64,000 nucleotides of DNA from Promethearchaeota archaeon (GTDB lineage: Archaea; Asgardarchaeota; Lokiarchaeia; Sigyniarchaeales; SOKP01). Shown here piece after piece: positions 56,044-60,315 of the stretch (within the stretch, counting starts at the first letter, position 1; every line of letters begins with the position of its first letter). The stretch covers positions 64,001-128,000 of the forward strand of contig JBHLOC010000004.1 of the NCBI GenBank assembly GCA_048940925.1. Reading direction: 5' to 3'. Both the position numbers and the translations under genes were made by a program. The notes under the pieces are model-generated. The model made no database searches and was not told the origin of the DNA. It saw only the letters and a list, made by a program, of their open reading frames with translations.

Positions 56044-56328
56044 ATGTTAATCTCAATGTTAAAGCAAGGGACCCTTTTGAAAAAAAACTGGGTTAAATTA
56101 AATCTTTTCTACATTGGAAAATCTAAAAAACATCAAATATTTAGAGCTAAACAGTGGAATAAGAGTTTCGAAAAAATTTTGAAACAACCAGTGTATAATG
56201 AAAGATATGAAAAAATTGGAAATATAAAGGATATATTTGGTCCTATCAATTTGCCCTTTATTTCGATCAAGACTTTGCCTAATCAACCCTTTGAACCAAA
56301 TATCAAATTATATACAAAAATAGCATAA
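56044..56328 (+). CDS. gar1: H/ACA RNP protein Gar1
   Basis: IGNIKDIFGPINLPFISIK; typical gar1-tfb synteny; start uncertain. Confidence 0.8.
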   Translation: MLISMLKQGTLLKKNWVKLNLFYIGKSKKHQIFRAKQWNKSFEKILKQPVYNERYEKIGNIKDIFGPINLPFISIKTLPNQPFEPNIKLYTKIA

Positions 56329-56372: not shown

Positions 56373-57353
56373 GTGTGTTTTATTTCAAGTTGGAGGGAAA
56401 TAAATTCTACTTCAAATGAGAACTTGGGTATAGAAAGTGGTATTTGCTCTGAATGTGGTAAAGCTATTTTTTTTGATGAAAATAGAGGGTTAATTGTATG
56501 TGAAGAATGTGGTTTAGTTCATTCCGAAAAACATATTGATCGTGGACCAGAATGGAGAGCGTTTGATGCAGATCAGAAAAAAAAGAGAACTAGAACTGGC
56601 GCACCTATGACCTATATGATACATGACAAGGGACTTAGTACTATTATTGATTGGAAAAACCGAGACATATTTGGTAAAGAAATACCAGCTAAATTGAGGG
56701 GACAAATTTATCGTCTTCGAAAATGGCAGAGTCGAATCAGAGTATCAGATGCAACAGAAAGAAATCTTACTTTTGCTCTTAGCGAACTCGATAGAATGGC
56801 TTCCAACCTAGATCTTCAAAAAAACTTAAGAGAATGTGCTGCTAAAATCTATCGAGATGCTGTAGAAGCGCATCTAATTCGTGGTAGAAGCATTGAAGGT
56901 GTTGCTGCTGCAAGTTTATATGCTGCTTGTAGAATGTATAAAGTACCAAGGACGTTAAATGAGATTGCTGATGTAGCTCGAGTTGATAAGAAGGAAATTA
57001 GTAGATCTTTTCGATTTATTTCAAAAGAACTTGATTTAAATTTAAATCCCACTAAACCACTTGATTTTCTTACAAGATTTATTTCTGAATTGGATTTAAC
57101 TACAAAATGTCATAGAATAGCAAAAACGATTATAAGAATGGCAGAAGATCGAGGTTTAACTTCGGGACGAGGCCCTACAGGCGTATGTGCAGCTGCAATT
57201 TATGCATCATGTATTTTGTCTAATGAACGAAGGACACAGAGGAGTATAGCTCGTGTTAGTTGTGTAACAGAAGTAACTGTTCGAAATCGCTTTAGCGAAC
57301 TAGTGGAAAATTTGAAACTTAGGATTTCATTGAAAAAGAATAGCAAGATTTAA
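56373..57353 (+). CDS. tfb: transcription factor B
   Basis: CSEC...[22 protein letters not shown], two cyclin repeats, EVTVRNR. Confidence 0.96.
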
Positions 57354-57711: not shown

Positions 57712-57745
57712 AAATCATCCCTAAAAATCATTTTAGGGATGATTT
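57712..57745. repeat. perfect 15-bp inverted repeat with 4-nt loop
   Basis: AAATCATCCCTAAAA-ATCA-TTTTAGGGATGATTT. Confidence 0.9.
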
Positions 57746-58222
57746 TTCTCTCAACTTAAGCAACTGTTGATATTGCCAATCTCTTTCTTTGGCTACATCA
57801 GTGTAGGCATCAGAAGTATTGTTGGCTCTATGTATAGCTTGTAATGCATAAATGGCAGCACCAATAGAATGTGTTTTAACATGAGCTGTTGCAACGGCCT
57901 GACCAGCGGCACGAGCGGCAGAACACGCAGAGTTATCTGCACCTACTTCACGAGCTGCTGTATGAGCATCAAGAGAAGCTTTGCGTATTACCCTCATCTT
58001 AAACACACCTGTATTAATCCATGTTTGGAGTGTTTCGATAGCATTTCTAGGACGATAGTCGTTAGGATATTTTTTCTCAAAATACGATAAAACTCGCTCG
58101 GTGCAATCAATCGCCCAGACAGCTAATATCTTTTTGTCAGTTTTTTTTAAAAGCTCTACAATTCTCTCATCGTTTCTATATTGTATAAGTGAAAATTTGG
58201 ATTTTTCTTTTTTAATTCTCAT
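57728..58222 (-). CDS. Imm5-like putative immunity protein
   Basis: LA.WA.DC.ERVL..FE...P.D.RPR.A, AARAAGQAVATAHV..H..GAA.YA; ATG at 58222. Confidence 0.82.
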   Translation of the reverse strand: MRIKKEKSKFSLIQYRNDERIVELLKKTDKKILAVWAIDCTERVLSYFEKKYPNDYRPRNAIETLQTWINTGVFKMRVIRKASLDAHTAAREVGADNSACSAARAAGQAVATAHVKTHSIGAAIYALQAIHRANNTSDAYTDVAKERDWQYQQLLKLREKSSLK

Positions 58223-58399
58223 ATAATTAAATGAATTGTGTATATAGTTATTAAACTTTTGACTATTAGAACAAACTATTCTGAGGAGAGCACAAATGGC
58301 AGAAATATTTGATATGCCTTTTTTAGCACTATAATATCTTTTTATTATCAAGTATTATCTTCATATTATAACATTTAATGTTCAATTAATTTGATCTAA

Positions 58400-58975: not shown

Positions 58976-59446
58976 TTGAGTTATTCTGATGATGAGCATA
59001 AATTAAAAAATATACTGAATTCAATCATCAATAGCGCGCCAGGTTTAAATAACGCTATAATAGTAGATGATACAGGTGTTACAATATTAAGTCAATCTAA
59101 GTTTAAATTTTCTGATCAGCAAAGTATTTCAATTGAGAAAATAGGGGCTATTGGAGGTGCTGTTTTTATAGCTGGAGAAGAACAAGGACATATACTAGGA
59201 TATGGAGCAATAGATTTACAAATTACTGAATACTATAAAGGTATGATTTTTGCAATAAAAGTAGGAAAAGGAGTATTATGTATCAGTACTGATCGGAATG
59301 TTCAAATTGGATTTATTAGAGCTATTATGAAGAAATATGCTCCTGCGATATCTGCTATATTGAATCGCTATTTACAAGTAGAACAAGCAGAATTTAGTAA
59401 AGAAGTTAAAGAATTATTTAGATCAGATACAATTGGATTGTTATAA
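58976..59446 (+). CDS. roadblock/LC7 (MglB-like) protein
   Basis: AIIVDDTGVTILS, IGAIGGAVF..GE, EY.KG.IF, .QIGFIR. Confidence 0.85.
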   Translation: MSYSDDEHKLKNILNSIINSAPGLNNAIIVDDTGVTILSQSKFKFSDQQSISIEKIGAIGGAVFIAGEEQGHILGYGAIDLQITEYYKGMIFAIKVGKGVLCISTDRNVQIGFIRAIMKKYAPAISAILNRYLQVEQAEFSKEVKELFRSDTIGLL

Positions 59447-59571
59447 ATTTCTGTCTATTTTTTAGACGCATAGATTTAGCCTAAAAACACTAACACTATT
59501 TTTTCATTTTAAGGGATTACCTTTAGATCAAAAATGTTCTCTCGTGCTAGGCAATAATCTCTATGCGCAAG

Positions 59572-59780
59572 TGGGACATAATCATATCTGCACGTTGGGT
59601 ACTGCCCTAATCCTCATCGCATTGGTGTTTACCGTTGCTAAGTTAAGAGCCCATGTATTTGCAGTTAAATTTTATTGATTAGTTTAACTCTGGATGTTTG
59701 CAGTTCTTTGCACACATAATCATTAGCAGAACGCTTCAATGTGCCCTCGAATATGCAATTATTCCGTCATTGATGTCCCA
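59572..59780 (-). ncRNA. candidate structured non-coding RNA of unknown class
   Basis: GC-enriched, ORF-free; terminal stem TGGGACAT/ATGTCCCA; TTTATAAT box at 59802-59809 with upstream A-run; several internal hairpins. Confidence 0.6.
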
Positions 59781-59820
59781 AGATATTTATAGTATCATTT
59801 GATTATAAAGATTTTTATTG

Positions 59821-60315
59821 TTAAGAAAAAGGAAAAGGTTCCTTTTTATTTATTCCTTTAATCCTATCCTCTATTCTTGTTATCAAGCTGGTTAGACTTC
59901 TGAAAAGTATTTTTTTTATTTGCTCATAAGTAAGATCTATTTCAATATCATTATCATCTCGAAAGTCATCAAATTTATAAAATGCTTTATAGACATTTTC
60001 TGTATTTAATATTTTGTATGAACTATCGACCAAAAATGCATAAACACTTTCACTTTCATACTCTTTTTTCATTATGAGTGAAAGCATTACAAATTCCTTA
60101 TTCCCTCGCGCCCATTCAGAGGGAATTTCGAAATGGAAGTTAATAATTTTCTTTTTTTTCGTAATGAGTACAATTTCGAAAAATGTCTCATTAATTTCAA
60201 GGTCAAAAAATTTAATTAATGATTTAATGATATCTTCTTCTAACTCGACTTCAGGATAGGATAGATATACGCTTGGACCCTTAATTTGATGGAAAAAAGT
60301 GAGTACTAAATGCAT
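59821..60315 (-). CDS. longin/uDENN-like protein
   Basis: LVLTFFHQIKGPSVYLSYP; FEIPSEWARGNKEFVMLSL. Confidence 0.65.
   Translation of the reverse strand: MHLVLTFFHQIKGPSVYLSYPEVELEEDIIKSLIKFFDLEINETFFEIVLITKKKKIINFHFEIPSEWARGNKEFVMLSLIMKKEYESESVYAFLVDSSYKILNTENVYKAFYKFDDFRDDNDIEIDLTYEQIKKILFRSLTSLITRIEDRIKGINKKEPFPFS

Follow-up and report, generated by a model that had tools for sequence, protein, structure and literature searches.

A minus-strand element within a 64,000-nucleotide (nt) stretch of contig JBHLOC010000004.1 from a Promethearchaeota archaeon (the window) is a genuine, unannotated and well-conserved RNA gene that is present once per genome across Asgard archaea. It is probably the Asgard counterpart of the archaeal three-hairpin H/ACA guide small RNA (sRNA) Pf7/Pab40/Afu-4, the HgcG family of Rfam, which guides pseudouridylation at the catalytic centre of the ribosome. 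This assignment draws on conservation, fold, motif geometry, complementarities, one guide-target covariation and linkage to gar1, from which we infer transcription, protein binding and the pseudouridine (Psi) modifications. An RNA of ~310 nt would be transcribed from its own TATA promoter and would fold into three stem-loops (SL1-SL3). The sheared G:A kink-turn (K-turn) or kink-loop (K-loop) of each upper stem would bind L7Ae, and the single-stranded ANA box 3' of each lower stem would anchor Cbf5-Nop10-Gar1. Each pocket would pair with 23S rRNA, so that one unpaired uridine could be isomerised to pseudouridine: U2496 for SL1, U2586 for SL2 and U1917 and/or U1915 in helix 69 for SL3 (targets are given in E. 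coli numbering).

The RNA is single-copy in its own genome. Of 36 genomes sampled in the genus, 35 gave one full-length copy by BLAST, and a single copy was recovered in 121 of the 135 genomes of the family, spread over all 13 genera. R1, a covariance model of 69 distinct homologues, gave full-length single matches in 8/14 genomes of the sister family, and full-length matches in 126/151 genomes of the class and in 37 genomes from 10 further Asgard families. The RNA was also recovered beside gar1 in two closed genomes that were absent from the matches of the filtered search. A second, partial R1 match (47 bits, ~108 nt) lies ~500 nt from the full-length copy in one relative (G117:C17:42373-42480) and may be a partial duplication. 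A scan of the window at Rfam gathering thresholds returned tRNA only and nothing at the RNA locus, and a permissive scan of 59400-59900 (E<=10) returned chance matches only, with E >3. The element had first been noticed in a model's examination of the letters alone (the sequence-only reading), which described an unannotated structured RNA with its own promoter and K-turn- and C/D-like motifs, far longer than typical archaeal C/D guides, and which proposed an Rfam scan, a homologue search and a covariation analysis. This part of the description is supported, the RNA being rich in K-turns of the L7Ae-binding type, and the three analyses yielded, respectively, no Rfam match, phylum-wide homologues and compensatory base pairs.

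The gene occupies an island (59480-59780) with a GC content of 36-45%, compared to 17-32% in the flanks, bounded by the 3' ends of two protein genes in convergent orientation (59821-60315 on the minus strand and 58976-59446 on the plus strand). The open reading frames (ORFs) of the island are short, mechanical ones of 34-44 amino acids (aa), none being >44 aa. The GC profile, the ORF list and the coordinates of the neighbours thus agree with the GC-enriched, ORF-free island between convergent genes that had been described. The minus-strand A-run and TATA-type box noted earlier 22-30 nt upstream were likewise found: TTTATAAT lies ~22-30 nt upstream of UGGGAC and is kept in an alignment of 30 genomes, in which the flanks of the box vary. 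From the promoter spacing, the transcription start is predicted at ~59780. At the other end, R1 matches 59468-59786 at 262 bits, and conservation and covarying helices extend to AGGC at 59479 plus the ANA box. As identity is high from the TATA box to ~59470 and collapses just beyond, the unit is ~310 nt long and not the 210 nt (59572-59780) first proposed; the suspicion voiced at the same time, that GC enrichment to ~59510 betrayed a longer transcript, was right, the gene reaching ~59472. The sequence past the last ANA box (AAU-N-UAUGC; 59468-59474, minus strand, and homologues) is still conserved within the family, beyond the usual end of an H/ACA RNA, and may act in termination or processing or form a short terminal hairpin, which in some relatives is GGC...GCC. 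Two short plus-strand ORFs of the island (44 and 34 aa), and an upstream gene that is syntenic and on the same strand, might be taken to indicate a coding sequence, decayed or unusual, or else a 3' untranslated region of gene 59821-60315 with a cis-regulatory role. Such an origin is highly improbable, as (i) substitutions are compensatory across helices and not codon-periodic, (ii) between the upstream stop codon and the element lies a conserved TATA box and (iii) the element persists across the phylum amid different neighbouring genes.

Folded alone, the sequence had an unexceptional energy (z = -1.0 and -1.9), and the structural case therefore rests on the comparison with relatives. An alignment of 30 sequences run through alifold with default settings left several helices unrecovered or wrongly paired; the final fold was obtained with RNAalifold on 69 sequences and hand curation, and comprises 75 pairs in 16 helices. 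In this fold 90% of cells were paired, compared to 36-43% when the 3' partners were slid, and changes on both sides of the pair were observed for 48 of the 75 pairs versus 25-29 in the slid controls. At phylum level (21 sequences), 65/75 pairs were compensatory and the covariation score was 0.61 versus <=0.12, in an alignment that was model-fitted and thus leans towards structure. The fold consists of a terminal stem (P1), a box C/D-type K-turn (Kt-1) with SL1 inside it, a helix (P5) enclosing SL2, a variable linker and SL3, the last lying wholly outside the coordinates 59572-59780 initially given. The G:A dinucleotides are kept in all four K-turns. All 5 pairs of P1 are compensatory at phylum level, and the terminal stem UGGGACAU (59780-59773) / AUGUCCCA (59579-59572) recognised in the single sequence is retained in the family as its core, UGGGA/UCCCA. 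P5 is paired in 99% of cells in the family and all 6 of its pairs are compensatory at phylum level. Among the other helices proposed from the letters, GGU/ACC and CUGCA/UGCAG stand, AGUUAAA/UUUAACU holds for this species and its closest relatives, and GAAUA/UAUUC and GGG/CCC fall outside the covariation-supported fold. The AGUUAAA/UUUAACU hairpin, of 7 bp, is created by a small insertion (59660-59690, minus strand) in this species and its two closest relatives; it puts the P5 strand UAAUCA in a loop and competes with the C-stem of Kt-1, and other family members are without it.

The three stem-loops have the architecture of H/ACA motifs: each consists of a lower stem, an internal-loop pocket and an upper stem, with compensatory support for helices 4, 5, 7-9, 12 and 15. 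Each upper stem ends in tandem G:A pairs, which form a K-loop in SL1 of most relatives and a K-turn in SL1 of this species, Kt-3 in SL2 and Kt-4 in SL3, and each stem-loop is then followed by an ANA box. The box after SL1 is present in 69/69 sequences (ACA in 56, AAA in 9 and AUA in 4) and that after SL2 in 68/69; ACA or AAA follows SL3 in most sequences, and the boxes are also kept at class and phylum level. In archaeal H/ACA motifs, 14-15 nt separate the ANA box from the pocket top (PMC2377435, PMC4652768) and the upper stem has 9-10 bp, in the published '10/x/y' folds (PMC4652768, PMC7075261); for membership, we accepted ANA distances of 14-15 nt and up to 16 nt. The values for this genome are 14 nt (SL1 and SL2) and 15 nt (SL3). 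They are 14-15 nt for SL2 and SL3 overall, with SL2 at 14 nt in other Asgard families and at 12 nt in one subclade of the genus. The GA stem of SL1 has 10 layers at each of three levels (family, class, phylum), and the upper stem of SL3 has 10 layers when the invariant AAC/GUU pairs are counted; that of SL2 has 12 layers when closed, or 9 if the lower three pairs of helix P7 open. SL1 therefore follows all published H/ACA rules and SL3 follows them with AAC/GUU counted, while SL2 has the right ANA distance and a longer upper stem, which would have the canonical length only with those three pairs open. The ANA boxes, the pockets and the third stem-loop had not figured in the sequence-only reading, whose K-turn UGA-AGC-GUUCU-GCU-AAU-GA (59738-59720) is confirmed as that of SL1. 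An internal K-turn in the SL1 pocket (CGAGG/GA) was considered and rejected, the GA of the 3' strand not being conserved.

We then looked for complementarity between the pockets and rRNAs from relatives, among which the target sequences are identical; the 23S rRNA of the genome itself is present only as model positions 16-1422 (C31:40107-41595). Pocket boundaries were fixed by the ANA and GA-stem geometry; unconstrained boundaries give many 13-17 bp matches with G.U pairs, which are useless. The SL1 pocket (UCGAGG / GCAA) matches exactly one site in 4.7 kb of rRNA, 23S UUGC-UU-CCUCGAUG, with 4+8 bp, and a match of at least 12 bp was found in 0.8-1.6% of shuffles. The CCUCGAUG block carries the E. 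coli landmarks A2503 and U2504, which makes the unpaired U of SL1 E. coli 2496. The E. coli RluE, RluC and RluB sites are 2457, 2580 and 2605. The latter sites correspond to the Pab35 targets 2549, 2672 and 2697 of Pyrococcus abyssi (PMC2377435), and by this constant offset of +92, E. coli 2496 is P. abyssi 2588. Psi2588 has been mapped in P. abyssi, and motif 1 of Pab40, the RNA called Pf7 in P. furiosus, guides its formation in vitro (Table 1 of PMC2377435); it is described as conserved in eukaryotic rRNA (PMC2377435).

The 3' pocket strand of SL2 has the phylum consensus AACCC, 14 nt from ACA, and pairs with GGGUU of 23S GAGCUGGGUU-UA-GACCGUC, so that U2586 stays unpaired. On the 5' side, (G/A)ACGG(G/A)C is complementary to G-A-CCGU(C/U) apart from one mismatch. 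Through a 35-nt offset, U2586 corresponds to Psi2621 of Haloarcula and Psi2605 of Haloferax. The equivalence of 3-methyluridines 2619 and 2603 is consistent with this offset (PMC7075261), and the Haloferax Psi2605 site is guided by SL1 of sR-h45, a homologue of Pf7 stem II according to Grosjean et al. (PMC2584109, PMC7075261). The site predicted for motif 2 of Pf7 in P. furiosus, 2701, is the same as E. coli 2586. A perfect 8-nt match between SL2 CAGUACCC and 16S GGGUACUG in one relative was dismissed as chance: it is not kept in the sister family and has no target U in register.

Helix 69 of these archaea reads GGGAG-UAACUAUAA-CUCUC and can pair with SL3 in two registers. In the first, UAGU/ACUA and GAGAG/CUCUC leave U1917-A-A unpaired (ACUA-UAA-CUCUC) in canonical geometry. 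In the second, GUUA/UAAC leaves UAUAA unpaired (UAAC-UAUAA-CUCUC); this places U1915 and U1917 17 and 19 nt away from the ANA box, and the same ACA distances have been measured for SL2 of sR-h45 (PMC7075261). Motif 3 of Pab40 and stem III of Pf7 are also aimed at helix 69 (PMC2377435, PMC2584109, PMC4652768), and both the order of the stems and the set of targets of SL1-SL3 therefore match stems I-III of Pf7. Earlier definitions of the SL3 pocket gave no target. The helix 69 stem differs among Asgard lineages (relatives L101, L183 and L184), being GGGAG/CUCUC or GGGAC/GUCUC, and its loop is UAACUAUAA or UAACUAUGA.

Guide and target were found to change together. In three genomes of family f12, helix 69 is GGGAC...GUCUC and SL3 carries GAGAC, whereas lineages with GGGAG...CUCUC carry GAGAG. 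The same three genomes have GACCGUU in 23S rRNA and AACGG in SL2; the other lineages in which 23S was read have GACCGUC. Family f27 has GACGG in SL2, and its 23S rRNA was not recovered. The putative guide strands (CAC/GUG, AAC/GUU and CGAGG of the SL1 pocket) are invariant, whereas the structural stems covary.

Several observations weigh against a Pf7-like guide. The HgcG covariance model (RF00064, gathering threshold 77 bits) has no match in the whole genome at E<=10, nor on the stretch, and no other Rfam model matches the RNA locus; homology to Pf7/Pab40 is thus argued from architecture and targets and not from sequence, and convergence may instead account for the resemblance. The 16S rRNA and the 3' half of the 23S rRNA are unassembled in this genome, and the targets were read in relatives. 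The 3' guide duplex of SL1 is only 3-4 bp. The complementarity of SL2 is short (5+6 bp with one mismatch), needs the lower 3 bp of P7 open, and fits a second 23S site, GGGUU-UA-GCUGGUU, too; in the genus the 3' strand of SL2 is UACCC and not AACCC, which gives a terminal U.U, and one subclade has a 7-nt deletion there. That of SL3 is also short (4+5 bp with UNN or a five-base stretch unpaired, N being any base) and was found after a deliberate look at helix 69. Matches of the quality of those of SL2 and SL3 occur somewhere in rRNA for 24-30% of shuffled guides; the two carry weight because they coincide with known sites of homologous stems, because guide and target covary and because the guide strands are invariant. 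Finally, gar1 and the RNA are on different contigs in families f4, f5 and f7.

An alternative is an L7Ae-bound scaffold or chaperone made of H/ACA-like modules that no longer guides pseudouridylation and whose loops bind proteins or pre-rRNA for assembly, in parallel to snR30/U17 or the H/ACA domain of telomerase RNA. Only SL1 satisfies all canonical rules; for SL2 and SL3, an alternative fold or an atypical unpaired stretch has to be invoked; guiding does not require the additional K-turn or the clamp helices P1 and P5; and the invariance of CACGAGAGAAC and GUGUUAGUG exceeds the conservation needed for a 9-bp guide. However, the three pockets are directed at exactly those three sites that homologous stems guide in Pyrococcus and Haloferax (PMC2377435, PMC2584109), a compensatory change links guide and target, and the ANA distances obey a molecular ruler that is relevant only to catalysis, so that we consider a scaffold rather unlikely.

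Kt-1 is a K-turn of the box C/D type. Its bulged strand has xAUGAx in 69/69 sequences, its non-bulged strand has NGA in 67/69, and the flanking helices 2 and 3 covary. The box C-like AAUGACGG (59771-59764) noted previously is a real motif, although its partner is not the 3' AUGA proposed but UCCAGA (59694-59689), ~75 nt downstream; together they form a C/D-type K-turn that frames SL1, and the 3' UGAUUA (59584-59579) pairs instead with the loop UAAUCA (59681-59676). The strands are of the AAUGAUGG and CUGA/CAGA types, with U.U and G-C as in C/D motifs and an adjacent stem that covaries, as for a terminal box C/D K-turn. An internal C'/D' motif and single-stranded guides of 10-12 nt ending 5 nt upstream of D or D' are absent: the SL1 hairpin and its ANA box fill the space between the boxes, and the nucleotides before box D pair with GGA. 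As there is neither a C'/D' motif nor a free guide of 10-12 nt upstream of box D, methylation guiding is unlikely. Relative to the euryarchaeal RNAs, Kt-1, P5 and P1 are additions, which probably provide one more L7Ae site, the fourth, and keep the hairpins together as a compact particle. Kt-1 could go further and make the RNA a nested C/D-H/ACA composite ribonucleoprotein (RNP) that recruits both Nop5-fibrillarin and Cbf5, one conserved Asgard particle serving the peptidyl-transferase centre and helix 69 together and a forerunner of the eukaryotic composite small Cajal body-specific RNAs (scaRNAs). The phylum-wide conservation of the Kt-1 motif and its canonical C/D geometry (U.U and G-C beside the G:A pairs, and a terminal stem) allow such a particle, and the missing C'/D' motif and free guide weigh against methylation guiding in it; overall, we regard it as unlikely.

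The bulged strand of Kt-1 was also the source of a bolder proposal, that the RNA is U3-like, its 5' segment pairing with the 5' end of 16S rRNA or with pre-rRNA and chaperoning small-subunit processing. AUCAA-UGA-CGGAAU can indeed pair 11/11 with AUUCCG-G-UUGAU, the 16S rRNA of the family starting with AUUCCGGUUGAUCC, and 9-10 of the 11 pairs are kept in 49 of the 69 family members if G.U is allowed. However, the two halves of the segment pair with GUUG-type and UCC sequences inside the RNA, and these pairs covary (13-119: A-U 34, C-G 17; 23-112: G-C 44, G-U 18, A-U 6), while the central UGA forms sheared G:A pairs. Complementarity to the 16S 5' end is complete (11/11) in only 3/69 family members, and the segment varies freely at phylum level. 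The RNA starts inside P1, with no single-stranded 5' domain, no box A/A' and no B/C motif, and the Rfam U3 models gave no match in the gathering-threshold and permissive scans. U3 small nucleolar RNA (snoRNA) resembles the Asgard RNA in its 200-300 nt and in K-turns that bind an L7Ae-family protein, and differs by its 5' single-stranded A/A' boxes and hinges and its B/C and C'/D K-turns, none of which is present here. These results do not support the U3-like proposal, which we consider very improbable. The similar size of the Asgard RNA, its several K-turns and its AGAGA-rich invariant loop might also recall a paralogue of RNase P/MRP RNA with specificity-domain motifs and without the catalytic core, yet a full-length archaeal RNase P RNA is encoded elsewhere in the genome (C41, 132 bits), no RNase P/MRP model matches the stretch at E = 10, and the fold has no P4 pseudoknot, CR-I or CR-V, which leaves such an origin barely conceivable. 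A candidate signal recognition particle RNA elsewhere in the genome (C37:14256-14371) aligns to the archaeal Rfam model over its S-domain part alone, scoring 43 bits against a cut-off of 96.5 bits.

The genomic context offers a further indication for an H/ACA RNA. The RNA gene lies 3.1 kb from gar1, which encodes an H/ACA RNP protein, and the distance is 1.7-6 kb in most genomes of families f1 and f2. This linkage is supportive of the H/ACA assignment and may be simple retained synteny. Gar1 of family f1 is short (83-100 aa) and matches only the C-terminal half of the Pfam model, and Gar1 of family f2 has a full-length Pfam match at 38-47 bits. The other neighbours (ECF transporter genes, a roadblock-like protein and an Imm5-like protein) are uninformative. 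The upstream ORF at 59821-60315 (minus strand, 164 aa) has no Pfam match and shows synteny with the RNA within the genus. The downstream gene at 58976-59446 (plus strand), which is convergent, is roadblock/LC7-like (MAPKK1_Int, weak), and the Imm5-like immunity-protein gene lies at 57728-58351 (minus strand).

Table. Coordinates of the RNA gene, its structural elements and the nearby gar1-tfb genes in the window.
Feature	Positions	Strand	Description
Promoter	59802..59816	-	TATA box TTTATAAT 59809-59802, preceded by BRE (B recognition element)-like A-run 59816-59812
Whole RNA gene	59472..59780	-	~310 nt; predicted 5' end from promoter, predicted 3' end from last ANA box plus a few nt
P1, 5' strand	59776..59780	-	UGGGA; pairs with UCCCA 59572-59576; 93% of cells paired
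Kt-1, bulged strand	59763..59775	-	C-stem CAUC, box C-like AAU-GA-C, non-canonical (NC) stem GGA
SL1	59695..59756	-	canonical H/ACA motif; lower stem 59756-59752 with 59704-59700
SL1 pocket	59751-59745; 59711-59705	-	UUCGAGG; GCAAAGA; complementary to 23S UUGC-UU-CCUCGAUG
SL1 K-turn	59738-59720	-	
SL1 ANA box	59697-59695	-	ACA, 14 nt from pocket top
Kt-1, non-bulged strand	59685..59694	-	NC stem UCC, box D-like AGA (CUGA in many relatives), C-stem GUUA
P5, 5' strand	59676..59681	-	UAAUCA; pairs with UGAUUA 59579-59584; frames SL2
SL2	59585..59665	-	lower stem 59665-59660 with 59593-59588; ANA box AUA 59587-59585
SL2 pocket	59659-59652; 59603-59594	-	5' strand AAUACAUG(GGC); 3' strand AGUACCCAAC
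SL2 helix P7	59651-59647; 59608-59604	-	GGCUC with AGGGC
SL2 Kt-3	59618-59614; 59640-59639	-	GAUGA opposite UA; apical hairpin 59638-59619
Linker	59553..59571	-	optional small hairpin GCAUAGAGAUUAUUGC; lost in several family members; flanking GCC kept
SL3	59475..59552	-	lower stem GCCUAG 59552-59547 with UUAGGC 59484-59479, CAC 59546-59544 with GUG 59490-59488
SL3 invariant strands	59543-59536; 59496-59488	-	GAGAG-AAC; GUGUUAGUG; upper stem UUUUU with AAAAA
SL3 Kt-4	59529-59528; 59508-59504	-	GA opposite AAUGA
SL3 ANA box	59477-59475	-	AAA (ACA in most relatives)
gar1	56044..56328	+	H/ACA RNP protein gene; PF04410, 28.7-28.9 bits, below the 29.3-bit cut-off; only match in the genome
tfb	56373-57353	+	follows gar1

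Among known RNAs, Pf7/Pab40/Afu-4 (Thermococcales, Archaeoglobus) is like the Asgard RNA a single transcript with three H/ACA motifs, all of which have an ANA box and either a K-turn or a K-loop. Its stem I directs modification of 2496, its stem II has an alternative fold and a predicted 2586 target, and its stem III is directed to helix 69 (PMC2377435, PMC2584109, PMC4652768). The size is similar, the Rfam model of HgcG having 276 positions, and the differences are that the Asgard RNA has no detectable sequence or covariance-model similarity to HgcG, adds Kt-1 around SL1, P5 around SL2 and the P1 clamp, has lower stems of 5-6 bp instead of ~9, and a longer upper stem in SL2 (12 layers when closed). 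Haloferax volcanii sR-h45 keeps two of the three stems: its SL1 serves Psi2605 (E. coli 2586), like Asgard SL2, and its SL2 uses a single pocket, with UNUN unpaired, for both Psi1940 and Psi1942 (E. coli 1915 and 1917), at the same distances as in the second register of Asgard SL3 (PMC7075261). It differs in having no 2496 stem, a 56-nt spacer between the stems and no C/D-type K-turn frame. In eukaryotes, too, RNA guides direct modification of these conserved rRNA uridines, but the H/ACA snoRNAs have two hairpins (H-ACA) and no K-turns, and the sites are spread over separate snoRNAs. In yeast, Psi2865 is served by snR46. The helix 69 sites, as in Asgard SL3, are served by snR191 and U19 (PMC7075261).

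A C/D K-turn and an H/ACA hairpin are combined in one transcript, as in the Asgard RNA, in Pab21/snoR9 of Pyrococcus and in the composite scaRNAs. In eukaryotic composite scaRNAs of the U85 type, the C and D boxes flank the H/ACA domain, an arrangement also seen in the Asgard RNA. In Pab21 the C/D and H/ACA motifs are adjacent, whereas they are nested here (PMC4652768).

Taken together, these data describe a phylum-wide family of Asgard RNAs, unannotated and missed by current Rfam models, and bring to it a fold backed by covariation and a set of predicted targets. The tempting claim of a U3-like RNA in Asgard archaea is removed as unsupported, and the nested C/D-type K-turn constitutes a modest structural novelty. 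The same rRNA sites are served by separate snoRNAs in eukaryotes, and the RNA suggests that a three-stem H/ACA guide for 2496, 2586 and 1915/1917 already existed before Euryarchaeota and the Asgard-eukaryote lineage diverged.

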